64,000 nucleotides of DNA, taken from assembly GCA_030612725.1 (NCBI GenBank), contig JAUWNJ010000001.1, positions 134,648 through 198,647 of the forward strand. Direction: 5' to 3'. The stretch comes from Planctomycetales bacterium. Lineage in GTDB: Bacteria > Planctomycetota > Phycisphaerae > SM23-33. This document shows positions 2,617 to 64,000 of this stretch, one piece after another. Both the position numbers and the translations under genes were made by a program. The notes beneath the pieces were generated by a model that saw nothing but the letters and a program-made list of their open reading frames with translations, made no database searches and had not been told where the DNA came from. Position 1 is the stretch's first letter, and each line of letters starts with the position of its first letter.

Positions 2617-3473
2617 TCAGGACCTGCGCCTGCGTAACATTGCCAGCCCGCCGATAGCCAGAAGCGACAGGCTCGCCGGTTCGGGAATGACTGCGACCCA
2701 GGCCTCAGTGTTACCACTGGGGTTGGTCCCGGTGCCCACGATGGTCGTCCCGTCGGTGGATACGCCTGTTGCCTGGGTCAAAGTCCAGCCGGTAAGGTCC
2801 ACGCCCAGGTCCGTCAGTACATCCATGAGGCTTCTCATGCCTTCGTCGGCATCCCAGACGAACGCCTCGGAGCCCGAGGCCGAGGTGCCCTGCCCGACCA
2901 CGACAGACCCGTCGGCAGAGACGCCTTTCGCCTCGCTGGAGAAATCGCCGCCCGGCAGGTCGCCCAAGCCAACCATCCCCCCGCCCGCCGTCCAGCGGAA
3001 CGCCTCCCAGCCCGATGCCGAGATGCTCCTCCCGACCACGACAGACCCGTCGGCAGAGACACCAAGCACCCAGCTGTAGAACTCGCCGCCCGTCAGGTCG
3101 CCCAGGCCAACCATCCCGCCGGCCGCCGTCCAGCGGTACGCCTCCAGGCCCGAGGCCGAGGTGCTCCCCCCGACCACGACAGACCCGTCGGCAGAGACGG
3201 CATACGCGCTGCTGGAGAAATCGCCGCCCGGCAGGTCGCCCAGACCGACCATCCCGCCAGCCTGCGTCCAGCGGAACGCCTCAGGACCCGAGCCCCAGTT
3301 GCCTGTCCCGACCACGACAGACCCATCGGCAGAGACGCCATACGCACAGCTCCAGAAAACACCGCCCGGCAGGTCGCCCAGGCCGGTAAAACTCACCGCC
3401 GCTGAGGCCCGCCCGGCCAAGACGCCCATCAGTATCACCGCCAGTAACAAAACAATCCACTTGCGCTCCATGT
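2617..3473 (-). CDS. PEP-CTERM sorting-domain protein with four internal repeats of about 42 aa
   Basis: Starts MERKWIVLLLAVILMGVLAGRASA (the ORF-track Met at 3651 lies further upstream; the internal Met at 3471-3473 gives a signal peptide). Repeats GLGDLPGGxFxSxAxxVSADGSVVVG. C-terminal PEPASLSLLAIGGLAMLRRRRS is a PEP-CTERM motif plus TM helix plus basic tail. Confidence 0.7.
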
Positions 3474-3672
3474 TCAGTCTCCTTTTCCTTCGTTCTGAAG
3501 ATGTCCCATTTGTCCAACACCGACCCCTCTCTTTTAACTGCACTGCTTCCAAAGCGAGCCGGAGCCATGACGTATAGTATATCACACGTTGTCCCTTTAT
3601 CAAAAATCTCCTCAAAAAATTAGGGATTTTCGAGGTTAAATGGGGGTACAAAAGGCTTCACTCAACTACCCG

Positions 3673-8036: not shown

Positions 8037-8252
8037 ATGGCAAAGAAGAAAGCCAAAAAGAAAGCCACGAAGAAGAAGGTAGCAAAGAAGACGACGACGA
8101 AGAAAAAAGCAACAAAGAAGAAAGTAGCAAAGAAAAAGGTAGCGAAGAAAAAAGTGGTAAAGAAAAAAGTGGTAAAGAAAAAAGCCACGAAGAAGAAAGT
8201 GGCGAAGAAAAAAACCGCAAAGAAAAAAGTAGCGAAGAAGAAAAAGAGATAA
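8037..8252 (+). CDS. Lysine-rich histone H1-like nucleoid protein
   Basis: MAKKKAKKKATKKKVAKKTTTKKKATKKKVAKKKVAKKKVVKKK... (about 45% Lys, tandem KKKAxKKKVA repeats). GGAGG sits 6 nt before ATG 8037. The upstream region 7700-8030 is AT-rich. Confidence 0.7.
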   Translation: MAKKKAKKKATKKKVAKKTTTKKKATKKKVAKKKVAKKKVVKKKVVKKKATKKKVAKKKTAKKKVAKKKKR

Positions 8253-16706: not shown

Positions 16707-16744
16707 GGGTTATGTCCTGATAATAGTAGCCGGTAGTCAGTAGT

Positions 16745-16908
16745 AAAATCCGAATGTCGAATATCGAAATGCGAAACAATATCGAATCACCGAAATACGA
16801 ATTTTCAAAACGCCGTCCGGAAACTCCTGCCGTTATTGTTTTGAACATTTGAATTTTGTATTTCGAATTTGTTTCGGATTTCGTGCTTTGGATTTCGGAT
16901 TTTTTCAC
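16745..16908. repeat. AT-rich imperfect palindromic element of about 165 bp between feoA and feoB (copy 1)
   Basis: Arms built from AAATCCGAA/TTCGGATTT, CGAAACAA/TTGTTTCG and TTCAAAAC/GTTTTGAA. Homologous to 19250-19418 at roughly 75% identity. Confidence 0.6.
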
Positions 16909-16914
16909 CGGCGT

Positions 16915-19232: not shown

Positions 19233-19249
19233 AGTACGTCTATATTAGA

Positions 19250-19418
19250 AGCAAAACCGAAATCCGAAGCACGAAATCCGAAACAATATTGAATGACCAA
19301 AATCCAAATTCTCAAAACTCCTCCTCTAACAGGTTTCGACGAGATTGTTTTGAAAATTCGAATTTCGGATTTAGAATTTGTTTCGGATTTCGATATTCGG
19401 ATTTCGGATTTGGGCGCA
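19250..19418. repeat. AT-rich imperfect palindromic element (copy 2) upstream of cinA
   Basis: AAAACCGAAATCCGAAGCACGAAATCCGAAACAATATTGAATGACC ... GTTTTGAAAATTCGAATTTCGGATTTAGAATTTGTTTCGGATTTCG. Confidence 0.6.
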
Positions 19419-19946: not shown

Positions 19947-20435
19947 ATGAATTACCTGAAAAAATGTCTCTGCCTGGTGTTTCTGACCGGCGTAATGGGC
20001 GGGTGTGAAGTTGTCTCGCCTGTTTACAGGCAGAGTACTGGTGGTTATCTCGGTGCGGACATTACGCCCAAGAACACCTGGAGCGTTCGAGGCGATCTTG
20101 CCAATCCCGCTGCCGCTGCCGATGAGGATATTTCCACTGCCGCTCGCAGCAACTACGGTTATACAGGGGCAGAATTGATAATCGACCTGAAGAAGGTCTG
20201 CCTCTTTCAGACCGTTATCCTCGAGCACGGAACCGCCAAAAGCGGGCACTGCCGGGAGGTCGATATATCCACTGGTGTGGACGGTAAAAATTTCAGCAAA
20301 AAACACGTCGCACCCGGAACACGTCGCTTTACGATCATTTCGCTACCGGCTCCGACGCTCGCGAGATACGTTCGCATCAAGGCCGTCAGTCCCGGAAGAG
20401 GCCGATGGTACATCGCGGAGGTTTATATACAGTAG
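19947..20435 (+). CDS. Lipoprotein with an F5/8 type C (discoidin)-like domain
   Basis: Lipobox LTGVMGGC. The C-terminal ARYVRIKAVSPGRGRWYIAEVYI is typical of discoidin/carbohydrate-binding domains. Confidence 0.5.
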   Translation: MNYLKKCLCLVFLTGVMGGCEVVSPVYRQSTGGYLGADITPKNTWSVRGDLANPAAAADEDISTAARSNYGYTGAELIIDLKKVCLFQTVILEHGTAKSGHCREVDISTGVDGKNFSKKHVAPGTRRFTIISLPAPTLARYVRIKAVSPGRGRWYIAEVYIQ

Positions 20436-20454
20436 GGACTTGGGACTAGGGACC
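20435..20454. repeat. GGGACTTGGGACTAGGG motif, also found at 45138-45168
   Basis: It overlaps the stop of the preceding gene. A single CAATCCG-like unit (AAATCCGCAATCACC) follows. Confidence 0.5.
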
Positions 20455-20583
20455 AGGAACCAGGCAACAGAATAAAAAGCAAAATCCGCAATCACCTGGC
20501 CCCTCTCGCCGCACCCGACGCCGAGCAGCGCATCGCCCGTAGTTTGGGTGAAAAAAGCGTTCAGCGTTCTTTTTTTATCTTTT

Positions 20584-28446: not shown

Positions 28447-31440
28447 TCACTTTACTACCAGATTTACCAATCGGTCCGGTACGACGATTTTCTTGATGAT
28501 TGTTTTTCCTTCAACGGCGGCTGCGACTTTTGGCTCGGCCAGTGCGGCGGCGATGATTGTTTCTTCGGCGGCGTCGGCGCTGACGGTAATAAGTCCACGC
28601 ATCTTACCGTTGACCTGAACGGCCAGTTCGACCGTATCTTCAACCAGCAGCGATTCGTTATATTCCGGCCAGGGTTCGTAAGTCAGCGATTCGTCGTGCC
28701 CCAGTTTTTGCCAGAGTTCTTCGGCCAGGTGCGGCGCGAACGGCGCAAGAACCAATAAGAACCGCCCAGCCTGGCCCTTCGAAATCGCACCGGCCTTGAA
28801 AACCACGTTGACAAATTCCATCATCGCGGCAATTGCGGTGTTGAACTTCATGGCCTCGATGTCGTCGCCGGCCTTCCTGATGAGTTTGTGCAAGGCACGC
28901 TCGACTTTTTCGTCGCCGGCTTTGTCAATCAGTAACGATTGAATATCCTCACCACCCGCTATCATTCGCCAGACTCGATGCAGGAAGCGATGCACGCCGG
29001 GCACGTCGCGGGTGTTCCAGGGTTTGGAGGCCTCCAACGGCCCCATGAACATTTCGTACAGGCGGAAGGTGTCGGCTCCGTATTCGGCGATGACTTCGTC
29101 GGGGTTGACGACGTTCTTGAGGCTCTTGGACATTTTTTCGACGGATTCTGCCAGGACTTCGCCGGTTTGCCTGTGTACGGGTTTGTCGCCGGAGGTGTTC
29201 ACGTCCTCGTATCCGACGCAGACGCCGCGCTTGTCGCGGTAGGCATAGGAGCGGATCATGCCCTGGTTGAAGAGTTTTCCGAACGGTTCAGACCCGGAGA
29301 CATAGCCAAGGTCGAACAGCACCTTGTGCCAGAATCGCGAGTAGAGCAGATGCAGCACGGCATGCTCGGCTCCGCCGACGTAAAGGTCAATGCCACCGAT
29401 TGTGGATTGCGGATTGCGGATTGCGGATTCCTCGCTCGGCGGTTTCATCCAGTACTTTTCAACATCACTATTGCAGAAGGATTTGTCGTTTTTCGGGTCG
29501 AGGAAGCGGAGGTAGTACCAGCACGATCCTGCCCATTGCGGCATGGTGTTGACTTCACGTTTTGCAGGCCCGCCACAGGACGGGCAGGTGGTATTGTTCC
29601 AATCGGTCGCCTTTGCCAACGGCGGAGCCGGCGGGGCGTCGGGGTCGTCGCTGGCCGACGGGGTGAAGTCGTCCATCTCCGGCAACTTGAGTGGAAGTTG
29701 ATCTTCGCCCAGCGCGACCGTTCCGCACTTCTCGCAGTGGATAATCGGGAACGGCTCGCCCCAGTACCGCTGCCGGCTGAAGAGCCAGTCCCGCAACTTG
29801 TAATTCACAGCCGCCTGACCAAGCCCCTGCTCGTCAAGCCAGGCGGTAATCTTCTTCTTGAACTCCGCCGTCGTCATGCCGTCATACGGGCCGGAATTGA
29901 CGGCGATGCCATCGCCGGTGAAAGGCAACTTCTCTAGTACAATATCACTTCCCTCCAAACCAAAATCCTGCAGGAGACTTTCTATCTGCCGCTTAGGACC
30001 CCTAACCGTCATTTGGGAAGAGTCACTACTGATTGAGCCTCCAAGATAATATTTTTGTTGAACCAGACTTGGGCTACCTTTCTTTGAGAAAAAGATTCTC
30101 CTGTCAAAGGAACAATTATAACTTTCAACAACCCGTATAATTGGAAGATTAAACGCACCCGCAAATTCGTAGTCTCTTTCGTCGTGGGCCGGGACAGCCA
30201 TTATCGCGCCGGTGCCGTAACCCATCATTACATAGTCAGCCACCCAGATAGGAATTTTCTCGTCGTTGACCGGATTAATCGCATAAGCGCCGGTGAAGAC
30301 GCCGGTTTTTTCCTTCGTATCAGCGGTGCGGTCGAGTTCGGATTTGTGGGAGGCTTCTTGTACATACCTGTCAACCGCATCTCGCTGCTCGTCGGTGGTA
30401 ATCTGCTCTACCAGCGGATGCTCCGGCGCGAGGACCATATATGTAGCGCCAAACAAAGTATCGGGGCGTGTGGTATAGACTCTTATAACTTCATCATTAC
30501 CCACAACAGTAAAATCAACATCGGCCCCCTCGCTTCTACCGATCCAGTTTCGCTGCATAATCTTTATCGACTCAGGCCAGTCGAGTTCGTCCAGCCCTTC
30601 CAGCAGGCGGTCGGAATATGCGGTGATGCGGAGCATCCATTGCTTGAGGTTCTTGCGATAGACAGGCCAGTCGCCGCGGTCGGATTTGCCTTCGTTGGTA
30701 ACTTCCTCGTTGGAAAGAACCGTCCCGAGTTTCGGGCACCAGTTGACCGGAACCTCCGCCATGTACGCCAGGCGGTATTCGTCAATCAGCCGGCGCTGCT
30801 GGTCGGGGGCAAGTTTCTGGAACTTCCTCTGGCCGTAGGCGACGCCCTCCAGACTTATGTTTGGAATCCGGTTATAGGGAGCCACGGGGACGACGTTTCC
30901 GCCTGCATCTACAGCCAGTTCGCCGGAAAAGAGTTTGTCAATCAGTTCCTCGATCGGCCTGGCTGCGTCGGCGTCCGGGTCGTACCAACTGTTGAACATC
31001 TTCAGGAAAATCCACTGTGTCCAGCGGTAGTAGTCCGGCTCGGTCGTAGCCAAACGGCGCGACCAGTCGTAACTGAAGCCGAACATCTTTATCTGACGCT
31101 CGATGTTGGCGATGTTGGCAGCCGTGGTTTCGCGCGGGTGGACGCCGTGCTCGACGGCGTATTGTTCCGCCGGCAGGCCGAAGGAATCGTAACCCATCGG
31201 GTGCAGGACATTGAAACCCCTCATCCGCTTATAGCGGGCGACAATGTCGGTGGCAGTGTATCCTTCCGGGTGTCCGACGTGCAGGCCTGCGCCGGACGGG
31301 TACGGGAACATGTCCAGGATGTAGAACTTGGGCTTATCGGCGAAATCCGCCTCATCCGGGTTAGGCTGGACGAAAGTCCCGTTTTCCTGCCAATACGCCT
31401 GCCACTTCTTCTCAATTTCCGTAAAATCGTATTTTTCCAT
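28447..31440 (-). CDS. leuS: Leucyl-tRNA synthetase
   Basis: HVGHPEGY (HIGH motif), KMSKS, and editing and anticodon-binding domains. Start taken at MEKYDF (31440) rather than the track's upstream alternative start. Confidence 0.9.
29401..29430. repeat. (CGGATTG)x3 / (CAATCCG)x3 heptamer repeat, in-frame inside leuS
   Basis: TGTGGATTGCGGATTGCGGATTGCGGATTCC encodes [10 protein letters not shown] on the minus strand, inside a roughly 15-aa insertion relative to canonical LeuS before the GG.EH region. Confidence 0.75.
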
Positions 31441-31789: not shown

Positions 31790-32060
31790 GCCTATCCAGG
31801 ATGATAATTGTTTAGTCCCGAAGGGACAAGGGATGGTAGCCGTGGGCGTCAGCCCACGGACATCGGTGATACAACAACTTCAGCCCCGGAGGGGCGCCGG
31901 AAAACTCGCTAATAGACTTCCACTCGTCATACGTTCTTTCCGACGTCCCTTCGGGACTAAATTTTTCCGGCCTTTCTCCGGGGGCTTACGCCCCCGGCTA
32001 CTGTCCTCCGGCCCTTCGGGCCTGTGATAGGTTACGGTAACCGAAAGGGCCGCCGAATGT
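31790..32060. other. Hairpin-dense non-coding region of about 270 nt: candidate structured ncRNA or REP cluster
   Basis: AGTCCCGAAGGGAC and GTCCCTTCGGGACT are mutually complementary 130 nt apart. There are also local hairpins GCCGTGGGCGTCAGCCCACGG, CCGGGGGCTTACGCCCCCGG, GGCCCTTCGGGCC and GGTTACGGTAACC (tetraloop-like UUCG/GNRA). Confidence 0.35.
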
Positions 32061-32643: not shown

Positions 32644-32700
32644 ATTTTTATCCTTTCGATGGTTCGCAGGTATTCTATCGCATGGTGCAGTGTTCCGAAA

Positions 32701-32770
32701 GGTTAGAGGTTAGAGGTTAGGTTCCGCGATAGTGAGCGGTTGTCTGTTTTCTCACCTCTCACCTCTCACC
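32701..32770. repeat. (GGTTAGA)x3 followed by (TCTCACC)x3: imperfect inverted tandem heptamers
   Basis: GGTTAGAGGTTAGAGGTTAGG ...34 nt... TCTCACCTCTCACCTCTCACC. The arms can pair 8 of 9 positions. Further on, the GGAGGGAGACCT motif is duplicated (32795-32806 and 32845-32856). Confidence 0.5.
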
Positions 32771-33061
32771 TTAAAAAAAGGGCGACACCCAGGCGGAGGG
32801 AGACCTGAGAATCGCCCCTACTTGCCGCAACCCTTGGTGCAGGTGGAGGGAGACCTACACCTTAAGTGGGTGCGGCGGACATTCGCGACAATAACGCCTA
32901 TCCGATTTTTCCGATTATTACATTACTACGTTATTCTTCGACAAAACCGAAGAAAATTCTTGAGAATTTTTTTCGCCTCGCGTACCTTTCCCATCAACTT
33001 TAACGATTTTGCCGGTTTATAGTTCTGATCTTCAGCCTGTTTTTTGTTCGTTCACTCGCTA

Positions 33062-36000
33062 TCAACTGCATCCCAACGATGCGCCACAGTTAAAGCATTT
33101 ATAACAGTTCCCGTTTCGTACCGTAATCGCTCCGCATACGTCGCATGGCGGGGCGTCCTCCTGGAAATGTGAGAACTGCTGATCGATACGATTGATGGTA
33201 CGCACTGCCTTCATTTTCTCAAGCCCAGCCGCTGTAAGATCGTCCGGATTGTGGTCGTTTTCGCCGTTTCCGCCGTCACCACCTGTAAGTAAATCGGCGC
33301 CGGGGGCCGGTACATCCTTGCTGCCGGTCCGGCCGGCGCCTCGCATCCCGGGGGCTGAATCATCCTTGCTGCCACCCGCAGAAACCGGAACTGTTGACCC
33401 GCCGCGACCTGCCGTGCGACCCGTCGCGGTAGTCATACCGGTTTGGTTCAAAAAATTCATGTCCAACCAGCGGAATATATAATCAACGATACTCTTGGCG
33501 AACGGGATGTCCGGATTTGCGGTCATTCCGCCCGGTTCGAAACGCTGGTGCGAGAATTTTCTCGTCAAAGCGTCCAGCGGGACGCCGTACTGGAGGCACA
33601 GGCTGATTGCCGTTGCGAATGCGTCCATCATTCCGCCGACGGTCGAACCTTCCTTGGCCATTGTGATGAACACCTCGCCTGGAACACCGTCGTCGTGCAG
33701 TCCGACGGTTATGTACCCCTCGTGCCCGCCGACCTCGAACTTATGAGTCAGCGACTGGCGAGTCGCCGGAAGACGACGCCGGCGGGGGAGCGGCTTGGAC
33801 GAAGAAGTTTCGACTTTGGTTTTTTCAGGCTCCTCGACCTCTTCGTCGTCTTTTTTCAGGTTCAAAGGTTGGGAAACCTTTGAACCGTCGCGATAGATAG
33901 CAACGGCTTTGAGTCCCATCTTCCATCCGCTGATGAAAGCGTCACGAATATCATCGACGGTCGAATCTTTGGGCATGTTGACGGTCTTTGAGATCGCCCC
34001 GGACAGGAAAGGCTGGACCGCCGCCATCATTCGCAGGTGCCCGGTGTAGTGGATGGATCGGTTGCCGTTGACCGGCTTGAAGGCGCAATCGAATATCGCC
34101 AGATGCTTTTCATTCATATCGGGCGCCCCTTCGATTGTGTCGTTTTCTTCGATGTGCTGGAGTATCCGCCCGATCTGCTCCTTACTGTACTCAAGCCTCT
34201 CCAGCGCCAGCGGGACGGTCTGGTTGACGAGTTTGAACATTCCCCCACCGGCCAGTATCTTATACTTCACCAGCGCGATGTCAGGCTCAACACCGGTAGT
34301 GTCGCAGTCCATCAGGAACCCGATCGTACCGGTCGGCGCAAGCAATGTAGCCTGTGCGTTTCGGTATCCGCTGGTCAGACCGGCTGCGATTGCTTCGTCC
34401 CAACCGGTGCGGGCAGCGTCGATCATCTCGGTCGGGCAGGCCGAGCGGTCTATGTCCTCGACTGCCTGACGGTGCATCCGCATCACGTTAATCATCGCTC
34501 GTCGGTTAGGGGCGAACTCCGGGAACGGACCGATCTGACTGGCGAGTTCGGCGCTGGTTGCGTATGCTTCTGCCGTCATTATCGCCGTTATGGCGGCGGC
34601 TACGGCGCGTCCGGGATCGCTGTCGTATGCCCATCCAAGACTCATAATCAGCGCGCCGAGGTTCGCATAACCAAGCCCCAGCGGGCGGAACTCGTGACTG
34701 TTGCGGCAAATCTTCTCCGTCGGATAACTGGCGTGATCTATTATCGTCTCCTGGGCGATAATGAATATCCTCGCGGCGCGACGGAAACCGTCTATATCAA
34801 ACGAACCGTCCGCCTGGCGGAACTTCATCAGGTTGATACTCGCAAGGTTGCACGCAGAATCGTCAAGGAACATATACTCGCTGCACGGGTTGGAGGCGTT
34901 TATCCGACCGCTGACCGGGCAGGTGTGCCAATCGTTAATTGTCGTGTCGTACTGCACGCCCGGATCGCCGCAGAGATGGCAACTCGAAGCCATTTTTTTG
35001 AGCAACTCGGCTGCACGATACCGACCTGTTACCTTCTCGGGATCAGTAACAGCGTGCGTGCACCATTCCCGGTCGTTCTGGGCGGCCTGGAGAAAATCCT
35101 CCGTCAATCGAATCGACAGATTGGAGTTCTGGTACATCACCGTCCCGTAGGCTTCGCCGTTGTAATCGCCGTCGTAACCGGCGTCTATAAGCGCCCAGGC
35201 CTTCTTTTCCTCTTTGGCTTTGCACTCGATAAATTCGAGGATGTCCGGATGGTCGCATCTTAGCGATTGCATCTTGGCGGCCCGGCGGGTCTTACCACCG
35301 GACTTGACGACGGCGGCTATCTGGTCGAAGACGCGCATGAAACTCAACGGACCGGAAGGAATCCCGCCGCCGGAAAGTTTCTCCTTGCTCGACCGAAGCG
35401 TCGAGAGGTCCGTTCCCGTCCCGGAACCATACTTGAAGAGCATCGCCTCCGAAGCCGCCAGGCGCATGATGTCTTCCATCGTGTCATCGACGCTCTGGAT
35501 AAAACAGGCTGAACACTGCGGGTATTTATAACCCTGAAGCGTCTTGGCCGGCGATTTGCTCTGCTTGTCCCAATGGAAATTACCTTCCGAACCTTCCACG
35601 CCTTTGACGTGGAAAAGCCCTACGTTGAACCATACCGGGGAATTGAACGCCCCGTACTGATTCAGGCACAACCAGGACAATTCGTCATGGAAAGCATCGG
35701 CGTCGGCGTCGGAAGCGAAGACGCCGTCCTCGCGCGCCCAGTCGGCGATGGTCCGGCTGACACGGTGAATCAACTCCCGCACCGATTTTTCGCGCTCCGG
35801 CGTATCCTGCTCGCCGAAGAAATATTTACTGACGACGACGTTTGTAGCCAATTGGCTCCACTGTTCGGGAACCTCCACGTCGTTCTGTTCGAAGATAACT
35901 TCTCCGTTTTCGTCTTTGATGGAGGCAGAGCGTTTCTCCCAGGTTATCTGTTCGAAGGGATCGACCCCTTCGGGGCAGAAATGCCTTTCCACCCGAAGCC

Positions 36001-36079
36001 CGTCCGGCGCATCCCTGATTGCCTCTGTCTCGCCAACACCGTCCTGATCCGTCAGTACCGAAGAAGAATGAACTGTCAT
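33062..36079 (-). CDS. nrdJ: Class II (adenosylcobalamin-dependent) ribonucleotide reductase
   Basis: About 1000 aa; ten-stranded barrel motifs (NPCSE...); C-terminal CDVCG...CYKCFNCG zinc ribbon. Confidence 0.85.
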   Translation of the reverse strand: MTVHSSSVLTDQDGVGETEAIRDAPDGLRVERHFCPEGVDPFEQITWEKRSASIKDENGEVIFEQNDVEVPEQWSQLATNVVVSKYFFGEQDTPEREKSVRELIHRVSRTIADWAREDGVFASDADADAFHDELSWLCLNQYGAFNSPVWFNVGLFHVKGVEGSEGNFHWDKQSKSPAKTLQGYKYPQCSACFIQSVDDTMEDIMRLAASEAMLFKYGSGTGTDLSTLRSSKEKLSGGGIPSGPLSFMRVFDQIAAVVKSGGKTRRAAKMQSLRCDHPDILEFIECKAKEEKKAWALIDAGYDGDYNGEAYGTVMYQNSNLSIRLTEDFLQAAQNDREWCTHAVTDPEKVTGRYRAAELLKKMASSCHLCGDPGVQYDTTINDWHTCPVSGRINASNPCSEYMFLDDSACNLASINLMKFRQADGSFDIDGFRRAARIFIIAQETIIDHASYPTEKICRNSHEFRPLGLGYANLGALIMSLGWAYDSDPGRAVAAAITAIMTAEAYATSAELASQIGPFPEFAPNRRAMINVMRMHRQAVEDIDRSACPTEMIDAARTGWDEAIAAGLTSGYRNAQATLLAPTGTIGFLMDCDTTGVEPDIALVKYKILAGGGMFKLVNQTVPLALERLEYSKEQIGRILQHIEENDTIEGAPDMNEKHLAIFDCAFKPVNGNRSIHYTGHLRMMAAVQPFLSGAISKTVNMPKDSTVDDIRDAFISGWKMGLKAVAIYRDGSKVSQPLNLKKDDEEVEEPEKTKVETSSSKPLPRRRRLPATRQSLTHKFEVGGHEGYITVGLHDDGVPGEVFITMAKEGSTVGGMMDAFATAISLCLQYGVPLDALTRKFSHQRFEPGGMTANPDIPFAKSIVDYIFRWLDMNFLNQTGMTTATGRTAGRGGSTVPVSAGGSKDDSAPGMRGAGRTGSKDVPAPGADLLTGGDGGNGENDHNPDDLTAAGLEKMKAVRTINRIDQQFSHFQEDAPPCDVCGAITVRNGNCYKCFNCGASLGCS

Positions 36080-38057: not shown

Positions 38058-38346
38058 CGGAACAGGCCCGGCGGGTGGCGGCGGACAAGGTAGCGGACAA
38101 GGTAGCGGACAAGGTGGTAGACAAGGTGGTGGACAAGGTGGTGGACAAGGTGGCGGACAAGGTGGCGGACAAGGTGGCGGACGCGGACGAGGACAGGGAC
38201 GCGGACGAATGGGCGGACCATTTGCCGCAGGAGCAGGCGGAGATTGCGTCTGCCCGAATTGCGGGCACAAGGCCCCACATGTGGCCGGTCAACCCTGTAA
38301 TCAGCAGTCCTGCCCGAAGTGCGGTGCAACAATGGCCAGAGGCTAA
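38044..38346 (+). CDS. DUF5320-like small protein: MPRGxGTGP N-terminus, (GQGG)n repeat, C-terminal double CPxCG zinc ribbon
   Basis: MPRGNGTGPAGGGGQGSGQGSGQGGRQGGGQGGGQGGGQGGGQGGGRGRGQGRGRMGG...GDCVCPNCGHKAPHVAGQPCNQQSCPKCGATMARG. An AAGGTGA RBS sits 7 nt upstream. The start overlaps the DUF89 gene by 14 nt. Confidence 0.5.
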   Translation: MPRGNGTGPAGGGGQGSGQGSGQGGRQGGGQGGGQGGGQGGGQGGGRGRGQGRGRMGGPFAAGAGGDCVCPNCGHKAPHVAGQPCNQQSCPKCGATMARG

Positions 38347-38436
38347 CCGGACAACGCGCCTTGTATGGGGAGCAGCCTTACGAGCCGCGACCGTGAGGGA
38401 GCGGTCAGGCCGATGCGAGAGTAGGTAGACTGAGAC

Positions 38437-44973: not shown

Positions 44974-45112
44974 CGTTCGCGTTTGCGCGCGCAAAGGCGA
45001 ACGTAAAAATCAGGGTCACGAAAAATTCCAAAAAAACTTTTCCCAAGGCCGCCAAGGACTTATGGCGTCGCTATCCGTTTTGTGTTCGCCTTTGCGCGCG
45101 CAAACGCGAACG
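44974..45112. mobile_element. MITE-like unit of about 140 bp bounded by two 30-bp quasi-palindromes that are exact reverse complements of each other
   Basis: CGTTCGCGTTTGCGCGCGCAAAGGCGAACG (44974-45003) and GTTCGCCTTTGCGCGCGCAAACGCGAACG (45084-45112). The 80-bp core is AT-rich. Confidence 0.4.
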
Positions 45113-45137
45113 GAAAAGATAATATAGAGAACAGATA

Positions 45138-45168
45138 GGGACTTGGGACTAGGGTTTAGGGACTAGGG
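45138..45168. repeat. GGGACTTGGGACTAGGGTTTAGGGACTAGGG, second locus of the GGGACTTGGGACTAGGG motif
   Basis: Identical 17-mer to 20435-20451; an AACAGAA...AAAA tract follows at both loci. Confidence 0.6.
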
Positions 45169-45193
45169 AACAGAAGAAAAGAAAAATAGATGA

Positions 45194-45296
45194 ACCAATC
45201 AACCAGTCAACCAGTCAACCAATCAACCAATCAACGGATTAACCGGAATACCGGAATACCGAGGGATCCGCAATCCGCAATCCACAATCCGCAATG
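45194..45296. repeat. Composite microsatellite block: (CAACCARTx5), (CCGGAATA)x2, (ATCCGCA)x4
   Basis: CCAATCAACCAGTCAACCAGTCAACCAATCAACCAATCAACGG...AACCGGAATACCGGAATACC...GGATCCGCAATCCGCAATCCACAATCCGCAATGG. Confidence 0.75.
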
Positions 45297-45410
45297 GCAC
45301 TCTGGGCCGTTTAGGCAAGCCAGGCAATGGTGGATTTTTTGAAATGGGCGAAAAAATGACCCCGAAAATCGTAACTGCTTGCACGCCAAGGATTTGCGGA
45401 TTTTGGAAAC

Positions 45411-45515
45411 TTTCCCAATTGTTCCCAATCGTTCCGAATCGTTCCCAATCGTTCCCATTTGTTCCCAATCGTTCCGAATCGTTCCGAATTGTTCCGTTTC
45501 GTTCCGTTTCGTTCC
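45411..45515. repeat. About 10-11 tandem copies of a 10-mer (TTCC[CG]AAT[CT]G)
   Basis: TTCCCAATTGTTCCCAATCGTTCCGAATCGTTCCCAATCGTTCCCATTTGTTCCCAATCGTTCCGAATCGTTCCGAATTGTTCCGTTTCGTTCCGTTTCGTTCCGG. Confidence 0.8.
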
Positions 45516-45547
45516 GGTTAAAGGCGCTGCTCATTTGGGACGGACCG

Positions 45548-63193: not shown

Positions 63194-64000
63194 ATGAGCA
63201 ATTTACGGGACAATCGATTGGTTAAAACGTTCGCTGACCTTCGTGCTGCGGGCAGGAAGGCGCTTATGCCTTTTTTGACTGCCGGTTATCCGGACCTGGA
63301 GACGACGGCTGCGTTGTTGAAGGATTTCGAGGCTCGCGGCGTGCGGATTGTGGAACTGGGAATTCCGTTTTCCGACCCGATTGCCGACGGACCTACGATC
63401 CAGACCTCCTATACCGACGCGCTTTCCAGCGGCGTTACCAGCGAAAAAATCTTCGATATGGTCCGCTCATATCGAAAATCTTCAAATCCGCAATCCGCAA
63501 TCCGCAATCCGCAATTGGCCTTAGTTGCGATGGTCAGTTATTCCATCGTCTTCAAGCATGGCGTCGAGTCGTATCTTGCCGAAGCAGCCGGTGCCGGCTT
63601 CGACGGAATTATCATCCCTGACCTGCCGCTGGAGGAAGCAGCCGACCTGGAACCGCTGGCGTCCTCAGCCGGCTTGGCCAATGTGATGCTTATCGCCCCG
63701 ACGACCCCGCCGGAGCGCAGACTTGAAATCGCCCGTCACTCGCGCGGGTTTATCTATTACATTTCCATCGCGGGCATCACCGGCGAGCGAGTCCGCCTGC
63801 CGGAGCAGAGCATCCGCACTGTGGCTGAACTTCGCACGCACACCGACACGCCGGTCTGCATCGGCTTTGGCGTTTCCAATGCCGAAACAGTCGCCCACGT
63901 TTGCGAGGTCGCCGACGGCGCGATTGTCGGCTCTGCCATCATCCACCGCATCACCGACGCCAAAGACGCCCCCCGCGACGAACTGGTCGGAAAAGTCGGC
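63194..64000 (+). CDS. trpA: Tryptophan synthase alpha chain (partial; runs off the window end)
   Basis: MSNLRDNRLVKTFADLRAAGRKALMPFLTAGYPDLETT...GVRIVELGIPFSDPIADGPTIQ; no stop before 64000. Confidence 0.8.
   Translation, partial: MSNLRDNRLVKTFADLRAAGRKALMPFLTAGYPDLETTAALLKDFEARGVRIVELGIPFSDPIADGPTIQTSYTDALSSGVTSEKIFDMVRSYRKSSNPQSAIRNPQLALVAMVSYSIVFKHGVESYLAEAAGAGFDGIIIPDLPLEEAADLEPLASSAGLANVMLIAPTTPPERRLEIARHSRGFIYYISIAGITGERVRLPEQSIRTVAELRTHTDTPVCIGFGVSNAETVAHVCEVADGAIVGSAIIHRITDAKDAPRDELVGKVG
63485..63515. repeat. (ATCCGCA)x4 heptamer repeat, in-frame inside trpA
   Basis: AAATCCGCAATCCGCAATCCGCAATCCGCAATTGG encodes [14 protein letters not shown]. It shares the SAIRNPQ peptide with the leuS insertion. 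Confidence 0.75.

Follow-up and report, generated by a model that had tools for sequence, protein, structure and literature searches.

In-frame CAATCCG heptanucleotide arrays in leuS and trpA of a Planctomycetales bacterium and their relatives in at least twelve phyla

A 64,000-nucleotide stretch of the genome of a Planctomycetales bacterium (Phycisphaerae, SM23-33; assembly GCA_030612725.1, contig JAUWNJ010000001.1, positions 134,648 to 198,647), which will be referred to as the window, carries tandem copies of the heptamer CAATCCG within two housekeeping genes, leuS encoding leucyl-tRNA synthetase (LeuS) and trpA encoding the alpha subunit of tryptophan synthase (TrpA), as well as between genes. 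A sequence-only reading of the window had pointed out these copies and proposed that they could be either contingency-style expansions tolerated in surface loops or a mobile repeat family invading open reading frames (ORFs), comparable to HIP1 of cyanobacteria. Here, we describe the arrays, their counterparts in other genomes and the processes that may have generated them.

CAATCCG arrays in leuS and trpA

The presence of (CAATCCG)n in leuS, in trpA and in an intergenic block was confirmed at the sites where it had been placed. The genes and copies concerned are the following.

28447-31440, minus strand: leuS coding sequence, start at MEKYDF (the mechanical ORF reaches 31641)
29398-29430, minus strand: leuS array, three perfect CAATCCG units plus partial or degenerate flanks, 11-residue peptide
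63194-64000, plus strand: trpA coding sequence, running beyond the window end
63476-63514, plus strand: trpA loop codons (13 residues), including a perfect (AATCCGC)4.4
45266-45295, plus strand: intergenic (CAATCCG)4.3 with one CAATCCA unit
20474-20486, plus strand: minimal copy (AAAATCCGCAATC) of about 1.6 units, adjoining a TAGGGAC array

Tandem Repeats Finder (TRF) reported the leuS array at 29398-29429 (period 7, 4.6 copies, 96% match) and the trpA array at 63485-63515 as a perfect run of 31 nt (4.4 copies, 11 residues encoded), which is preceded by the degenerate units AAATCTT and (C)AAATCCG. The intergenic array (TRF, 91% match) is located between the convergent DUF6498 gene and trpC amid arrays of 7-, 8- and 10-mers; it had been described as uninterrupted, but holds one G>A change. 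The copy at 20474-20486 exists as proposed, with about 1.6 units rather than a single one. A two-unit CAATCCG pattern with at most one mismatch matched the window eight times compared to 0.07 matches expected, and none of 100 shuffles reached eight. Comparing periods 4 to 12 for perfect arrays of at least 2.5 copies yielded seven arrays at period 7 and zero to three at each of the other periods. The heptamer arrays are thereby confirmed as real and non-random.

The LeuS of the window (P0001, 100% identical) matches Pfam tRNA-synt_1 and other families. Its sense strand reads GAA TCC GCA ATC CGC AAT CCG CAA TCC ACA ATC GGT GGC at the array, and the 11-residue array peptide ends directly before the 12-residue segment that follows. 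Most orthologues have a loop of 4 or 10 residues at this site. Consistent with the earlier statement that E. coli-type LeuS has no counterpart of the insert, LeuRS of Neisseria gonorrhoeae (6q89) aligns with a gap of 17 residues. The idea that an ancestral LeuS loop of the type xNPxGG had supplied an AAT-CCG proto-unit was dropped, as the one short-loop orthologue read has AAC CCA.

In TrpA, most of 120 homologues possess a five-residue xGGGx loop at the corresponding position, including relatives at 82-89% identity, and an empty site is represented by an 87%-identical orthologue with the sequence TAT CGT GCT GAT GGC GGG AAA CTC GCC. The 13-residue loop of the window is identical in P0121 (92% amino acid identity) and near-identical in P0125 (91%), which carries KSSNPQSSIRNPQ. 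The sister genome GCA_030592655.1 encodes a TrpA with a different 24-nt insert, yet its LeuS contains a CAATCCG array. Against the solved structure 5ey5_A the TrpA insert appears as an eight-residue gap. In an AlphaFold2 model of the window TrpA (predicted local distance difference test, pLDDT, 90.8), the insert is predicted to form a coil between helix 83-95 and strand 109-113, that is, between helix 2 and strand 3, with a local dip of pLDDT to 76-81. From the geometry of TIM barrels, this alpha-to-beta loop presumably lies at the N-terminal end of the strands, on the face opposite to the catalytic one. Both insertion sites are structurally permissive positions within conserved proteins. Alignment with orthologues, most of which have short loops, clearly supports the view that the additional residues of LeuS and TrpA are lineage-specific in-frame insertions in variable loops, where they add harmless loop peptide.

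Insertions of other kinds were observed elsewhere in LeuS. Four relatives (P0006, P0061, P0070 and P0076), with LeuS flanks 67-87% identical to the window LeuS, carry an in-frame insert of ~200 amino acids matching PF01797 (IS200-like Y1 transposase) where the editing domain begins (residues ~316-530 of P0006). The window LeuS contains a further lineage-specific insert of ~60-75 residues at ~444-520 (~29880-30110, minus strand), which is absent from P0006 and is not built of heptamers.

The same two loops carry repeat-derived inserts in other lineages. In neighbour-joining trees of LeuS and TrpA, constructed with the insertion loop masked, inserts of the NAATCCG type were located in at least three separate clades for each protein. 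In another lineage the LeuS loop is occupied by ~12 units of a different heptamer, GGCAACA (84 nt, 28 codons), and the peptides GNRQLAI and NSQFTIH are found in the TrpA loop of others. The TrpA gene of L207 contains an in-frame inverted pair, (CGGATTG)5 ... HDGK... ... (AAATCCG)4, and the HDGK codons between its arms look like those of the ancestral loop. EESARDNLQSA and ESAIPRPKSK in LeuS appear to be decayed relics of arrays. Taken together, these sequences argue for repeated colonisation of the LeuS and TrpA loops in different lineages.

Within a lineage, array length proved to be stable. For LeuS, the window, the sister genome L002 (84% amino acid identity) and L004 (67%) agree in the length, phase and junctions of the array, and in L003 (74%) an insertion of 15 nt is nested within it. 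The TrpA array is identical in P0121, and the junction AAT CCG CAA TTG GC is common to relatives at 65-68%. A shorter LeuS allele was found in L382, a member of another clade, which reads GAG GAA TCC GCA ATC GGC GGC and differs from L002 and the window by exactly 21 nt, corresponding to three units fewer, with unchanged junctions and the same flanks. The tree neighbour of L382 carries EESARDNLQSA, apparently a decayed relic of 4.6 units, and judged from these alleles a single contraction by three units would be the simplest reading. Thus, the only length variant of a coding array among the compared array relatives is in frame (21 nt), as expected from the proposal that coding copies slip in 21-nt steps. 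Orthologues bearing the peptide also carry the repeat DNA. Array codons were identical between orthologues in 8/9 to 12/12 cases compared to 53-76% of synonymous sites elsewhere (P ~0.03-0.07 for each of the comparisons, which are non-independent). Saturation of the flanking synonymous sites had been expected; with 53-76% of codons identical at identical residues this was not the case, so that the excess in the array is modest.

Distribution, coding capacity and register of the repeat

An exact 18-mer scan with one genome per species yielded at least 120 stretches. Among the matches listed, and judged from their record titles, ~37 belong to Acidobacteriota, 23 to Planctomycetota, 17 to Verrucomicrobiota, 10 to Bacteroidota, 9 to Chloroflexota and 5 to Gemmatimonadota, and further carriers are Nitrospirae, Armatimonadota, Fibrobacterota, Hydrogenedentota, Cyanobacteria and proteobacterial records. 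The repeat therefore extends well beyond the window, to at least 12 phyla and to viral contigs; almost all carriers are metagenome-assembled genomes. Array-bearing loci contained 291 arrays per Mb at period 7 compared to 9-39 per Mb at other periods and 16 per Mb in loci ascertained through TrpA. In IMG/VR, 79 18-mer stretches were obtained for CAATCCG, 41 for AAATCCG, 25 for TGCTGAC and 10 for TAGGGAC, whereas three permuted heptamers of CAATCCG composition gave 7, 7 and 5; CAATCCG is accordingly 10-15 times commoner than these controls, and some viral contigs contain six or seven CAATCCG arrays.

Whether ORFs spanning an array are coding was judged by Pfam scans, which replaced a test based on third-position G+C content (GC3) that was too noisy. 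Arrays within or between domains were confirmed in 12 cases in sense orientation (a class-III aminotransferase, two Ser/Thr kinases, GluRS, two UvrA, an ABC ATPase, a molybdopterin-binding domain, an ArsA linker and others), in three cases in antisense orientation (MurD, an Xaa-Pro peptidase and a histidine kinase) and in one case with both arms (LpxB of L107). The 12:3 sense bias is suggestive (two-sided binomial ~0.035), the candidates not having been chosen blind.

Tandem CAATCCG and AAATCCG are free of stop codons in all six frames. Since 7 and 3 have no common divisor, a heptamer in tandem is translated into one and the same cyclic seven-residue peptide whichever frame of a strand is read. 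For CAATCCG this peptide is SAIRNPQ in sense and RIADCGL in antisense orientation; (SAIRNPQ)n is hydrophilic and rich in Pro, Asn and Ser. Stops interrupt at least one strand of TAGGGAC, TGCTGAC, AGGTTAG, GTAGTCA and TCTCACC. Two further stop-free units, CAATTGG and CGAATAT, are restricted to intergenic regions in the window. The sense RNA is essentially unstructured (-1.6 and -0.2 kcal/mol for six units) and the antisense RNA folds moderately. A G-U hairpin of antisense (CGGAUUG)n that might serve as a terminator was considered and rejected, as its minimum free energy of -8.2 kcal/mol is no better than that of shuffled sequences (z = 0.07).

Host families could not be listed by a database search with (SAIRNPQ)6, which returned only short hypothetical mini-ORFs that are unannotated or misannotated. 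Isolates such as Bordetella hinzii and Chitinophaga niastensis were among the genomes that it brought up. Several short (SAIRNPQ)n ORFs (among P0241-P0341) are labelled 'major type 1 subunit fimbrin (pilin)' by JGI, and one NCBI record is named 'fimbrial subunit'; both labels apparently arose as artefacts of annotating the repeat.

Array ends were analysed in 141 perfect runs of at least 25 nt, the length of which is free of phase bias from the search pattern. Of these runs, 77% begin at the C or A of CAATCCG and 68% finish at CAAT or CAATC (chi-square p ~1e-34 for starts and ~1e-24 for ends), and the lengths of the runs modulo 7 have their maximum at 4-5. Directly after the last full unit come C (79%), A (90%), A (85%) and T (93%), followed by random sequence. 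The arrays thus have a fixed register, (CAATCCG)n-CAAT. AAATCCG arrays, which had not been ascertained in this way, show the same register, whereas TGCTGAC arrays do not. Flank profiles of 221 arrays revealed no conserved motif beyond the terminal CAAT(C), except for a weak T/C-rich signal upstream, and no target-site duplication was detected in these arrays or at the TrpA and LeuS junctions. A short partner in inverted orientation precedes many arrays, 12-20 nt upstream of them.

With respect to genes, and based on crude ORF calls, 38 of 137 CAATCCG-sense arrays are located within 30 nt upstream of a co-oriented ORF start compared to 19 of 137 in antisense orientation, and 28 CGGATTG-sense arrays compared to 13 lie within 30 nt downstream of an ORF end. 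Compact viral contigs show the same positional pattern at starts and ends. Placement upstream of starts is therefore a roughly two-fold trend and not the position of the majority.

Other heptamer arrays and features of the window

The window contains ~16 period-7 TRF arrays, ~14 of which lie outside credible genes, the exceptions being those in leuS and trpA. Their units are diverse (TAGGGAC, TGCTGAC, AAATCCG and its complement, GTAGTCA, AGGTTAG, TCTCACC, CAATTGG and others), and CAATCCG is the only heptamer with arrays inside credible genes of the window. Several of the intergenic arrays form inverted pairs around a short spacer, among them those listed here.

16741-16910, strand not applicable: hairpin element (~170 nt) separating feoA-dtxR from feoB, its arms being AAATCCG-like and CGGATTT
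19253-19283, plus strand: left arm of an inverted pair located upstream of cinA, made of an AAATCCG-variant array
19357-19411, plus strand: right arm of the same pair, made of a CGGATTT array (AAATCCG in reverse complement)

The segments 16741-16910 and 19245-19415 are homologous AT-rich hairpin elements of ~170 nt with arms of the AAATCCG/CGGATTT type. Other inverted blocks have a unit of their own, namely GTAGTCR/YGACTAC at 1347-1454 and AGGTTAG/CTCACCT at 32700-32771. In the latter, a 65-nt block, (GGTGAGA)3-spacer-(CCTCTAA)3, represents a clean indel that is absent from the near-identical sequence of L002. Conversely, L002 holds arrays where the window has none, which indicates a fast turnover of intergenic arrays. 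The region 45100-45530, which includes the intergenic CAATCCG copy, is a mosaic of TAGGGAC (4.9 copies), AACCAATC (5.4), ACCGGAAT (2.5), ATCCGCA (4.3) and GTTCCSAATC (10.5); TAGGGAC adjoins CAATCCG again at 20433-20486 and in other metagenome-assembled genomes of Planctomycetota (L069, L118).

A scan of the window with Rfam at gathering thresholds gave no match at any array. The only matches were two Acido-Lenti-1 motifs in inverted orientation, at 31814-31859 (minus strand) and 31978-32023 (plus strand), with 47 and 52 bits (gathering score 37). They are located in the leuD-DUF167 spacer of ~290 nt, which is absent in L002, where the leuD and DUF167 genes overlap; the spacer looks like an inserted element. 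At 32773-32861 (minus strand), downstream of the gene for a B12-dependent ribonucleotide reductase and upstream of leuD, a segment of ~90 nt ending in a T-run is 100% identical between the window and the sister genome, which is otherwise 84-88% identical. Although it has no Rfam match, this segment may represent a conserved structured RNA or a terminator. The ribonucleotide reductase and its TSCPD domain form a single ORF of 1005 amino acids in the window (33062-36079, minus strand) and are called as two genes of 718 and 285 amino acids in L002 (2220-5240). Repeats of other types comprise a 138-nt unit in 3.8 copies (2860-3384) within an ORF without Pfam match (2617-3651, minus strand), a Lys-rich 15/30-nt repeat directly upstream of a ParA-like gene (8040-8244) and the 12-nt unit GGCGGACAAGGT in 8.6 copies (38080-38218) in the ORF 38075-38428.

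Origin of the arrays and relation to known repeats

Taking these observations together, we consider it probable that (C/A)AATCCG represents a widespread family of heptanucleotide simple sequence repeats (SSRs), of which the coding arrays are members and which is produced by slippage or template switching, with selection acting as a filter in ORFs. According to this model, arrays would be generated and homogenised by one of these two processes, and within genes they would survive only if the net change in length is a multiple of three nucleotides, resulting in steps of three units (21 nt), and if the loop tolerates extra coil. Over time, coding arrays would decay to ordinary loop sequence. The same LeuS and TrpA loops would be recolonised because only permissive loops and 21-nt steps survive, and arrays once fixed would keep their length because slips of one unit are frameshifts that are purged by selection. 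From the data presented we infer slippage or template switching as the generator and selection as the filter.

Several points weigh against this interpretation. If slippage and decay were random, the ends of arrays should fall in any phase, unlike the fixed register observed. Neither the 10-15-fold excess over permuted heptamers nor the occurrence in at least 12 phyla is accounted for by generic slippage. Growth by single units cannot give rise to a coding array, since it would pass through intermediates of +7 and +14 nt that shift the frame; a gene would have to acquire its first 21 nt or more at once, or through conversion by an array elsewhere. The excess of identical array codons hints at constraint at the nucleotide level. 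Freedom from stop codons, which was considered as a special property of the unit, is shared by 50% of heptamer classes on both strands. The arrival of the first 21 nt, the fixed register and the favouring of one unit across phyla leave room for a block-insertion or templated mechanism or for a binding-site role.

It is accordingly possible, if unlikely, that (N)AATCCG arrays are the product of a sequence-specific process operating across phyla, such as templated addition or enzyme-mediated insertion next to CAAT, which writes blocks of at least 21 nt, or else that they are binding sites of a conserved regulator. This would account for the fixed register, the 10-15-fold excess and the spread over at least 12 phyla and viral contigs, which are not explained by plain slippage.

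Similarly, we regard it as doubtful that the arrays represent or descend from small mobile hairpin elements resembling MITEs (miniature inverted-repeat transposable elements), doublets of repetitive extragenic palindromic sequences (REPINs) or Rickettsia palindromic elements (RPE), the single arms in leuS and trpA representing remnants or half-elements. The clean presence or absence of the 65-nt block between the window and its sister genome, the complete in-frame inverted pairs in TrpA of L207 and LpxB of L107 and the short inverted partner upstream of many arrays would be consistent with such an origin, as would the register ending in CAAT and the occurrence of the same unit across many phyla and viral contigs, a number of the latter containing six or seven arrays. 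However, each inverted pair of the window uses its own heptamer (GTAGTCR, AGGTTAG or AAATCCG), so that the pairs do not represent copies of a single element, the number of units is variable, and the leuS and trpA copies of the window are in single orientation. The apparently ancestral HDGK codons between the arms in L207 do not fit a single contiguous insertion either. IS200-like Y1 transposase domains are present in related lineages, but no transposase, including Y1_Tnp, was detected among the ~40 window ORFs scanned, and conserved flanks and target duplications are both absent in the 221 arrays. Thus, junctions, the 221 flanks and the scanned window ORFs provided no evidence of transposition of CAATCCG arrays.

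A role of the repeat as a functional nucleic-acid signal, either as an array bound by a conserved RNA- or DNA-binding protein or as an unstructured leader in sense orientation enhancing translation, with coding copies as tolerated spill-over or acting on the mRNA, seems improbable. The preference for a single heptamer over its permuted controls, the difference in structure between the two RNA strands and the identity of array codons would be in line with a signal, and the TAACTGA repeat discussed below follows the same logic (PMC4679880). The enrichment near ORF starts and ends, which recurs in viral contigs, points in the same direction, but these biases are modest and derived from crude ORF calls, and the intergenic array of the window lies between convergent gene ends rather than in a 5' leader. 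The fast turnover of intergenic arrays between sister genomes and the antisense self-folding, which equals that of shuffled sequences, also argue against a signal, and a binding factor was not identified.

It is very improbable that the coding arrays are contingency loci that switch or tune LeuS and TrpA in a phase-variable manner; contingency-style expansion had been raised by the sequence-only reading. Slips of a single 7-nt unit would indeed toggle the frame as in classical phase-variable genes; nevertheless, copy number is the same at 67-92% amino acid identity, the arrays are located mid-gene in conserved domains, and both proteins are single-copy housekeeping enzymes, the loss of which would be lethal or lead to auxotrophy. 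The Logan assembly SRR12623518 (L001, trpB-trpA locus) ends inside the trpA array at a position matching 63512 of the window, but this break is expected of a k=31 graph at a shared perfect repeat of 31 nt, provided that the sample holds other arrays of the same unit of at least 31 nt. Metagenome-assembled genomes make up almost all carriers; even so, an artefact of assembly or sequencing is hardly credible, given that the same in-frame leuS and trpA arrays recur in independent NCBI, JGI, ENA and Logan assemblies, that arrays occur in contigs of 0.3-4.5 Mb (e.g. L016 and L074), that reading frames are intact inside conserved domains and that point substitutions fit descent.

If slippage and selection act as proposed, the arrays represent a route from non-coding microsatellite DNA to protein, in which a stop-free heptamer encodes one peptide in any frame, grows in 21-nt steps and subsequently decays. 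The heptamer family extends across many phyla that are known largely from metagenomes, and its register and excess call for a mechanism; a sequence-specific process, if true, would supply new protein loops, even to essential genes. In practical terms, the arrays break short-read assemblies and give rise to spurious small ORFs that are misnamed in public databases, and they could act as lineage markers in LeuS and TrpA alignments.

Full-text searches with the DNA strings and with SAIRNPQ, RIADCGL and KSEIRNP repeats revealed no published description of a CAATCCG array or its peptides, and nothing was found on heptanucleotide repeats together with Planctomycetes. HIP1 (GCGATCGC) of cyanobacteria is a dispersed palindrome of 8 bp that is highly over-represented in coding and non-coding DNA. 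The comparison drawn earlier with HIP1 is weak, since HIP1 is not tandem and adds no residues to proteins, whereas CAATCCG is a non-palindromic 7-mer in tandem. REP and REPIN sequences associated with RAYT (REP-associated tyrosine transposase) are imperfect palindromes with a conserved GTAG end that are tied to a single-copy Y1 transposase. Closer analogues would appear to be the long heptanucleotide SSRs, including the short tandemly repeated repetitive (STRR) sequences, TAACTGA and GGGAATC, and with regard to in-frame behaviour the RPE. The latter reportedly occur in frame within protein-coding genes of Rickettsia, a finding attributed to Ogata et al. in 2000. As in RPE and MITEs, non-coding repeat DNA is tolerated here in frame at fold-neutral positions of conserved or essential proteins, and like RPE some CAATCCG copies are full inverted pairs (L207, L107). 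Unlike the variable-length microsatellite arrays described here, which lack a fixed body, RPE are discrete elements of ~100-150 bp with a defined sequence.

Heptamers are over-represented among long bacterial SSRs and have been connected with a polymerase-slippage hypothesis (Mrazek 2007, as related in PMC4679880 and PMC4692102), and the literature on long SSRs in prokaryotes describes those of coding regions as mostly multiples of three. Known examples are the cyanobacterial STRR of Calothrix and Nostoc, GGGAATC of Xanthomonas and GGGGAYT of Nostoc (PMC4692102). CAATCCG resembles these repeats in its tandem 7-nt units, its period-specific excess and its mostly intergenic location, with some inverted pairs capable of forming hairpins; several heptamers per genome are a further common trait, and intergenic arrays that differ in length and sequence between related genomes may be another. 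In contrast to STRR and GGGAATC, (C/A)AATCCG is a new unit that is neither G-rich nor quadruplex-forming, it is present in Planctomycetota, Acidobacteriota, Verrucomicrobiota and others, and it has been fixed repeatedly in conserved domains of essential enzymes.

Among described repeats, the nearest counterpart is the TAACTGA direct repeat of Beggiatoaceae, Cyanobacteria and Bacteroidetes (MacGregor 2015, PMC4679880), for which a role in binding or as a translation leader was proposed and the majority of which lies just upstream of start codons (PMC4679880). Both repeats favour one heptamer with rare relatives, are distributed patchily across phyla without an evident transfer mechanism, tend to occur upstream of starts, in CAATCCG with a bias of about two-fold, and are occasionally found in ORFs as a cyclic heptapeptide (LSVISYQ for TAACTGA and SAIRNPQ for CAATCCG). 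TAACTGA, however, contains stops in all three forward frames and is thereby excluded from genes in forward orientation. Its reverse copies are located at protein termini or in hypothetical ORFs, whereas CAATCCG arrays are located mid-domain in LeuS, TrpA, GluRS, UvrA, MurD, LpxB and kinases.

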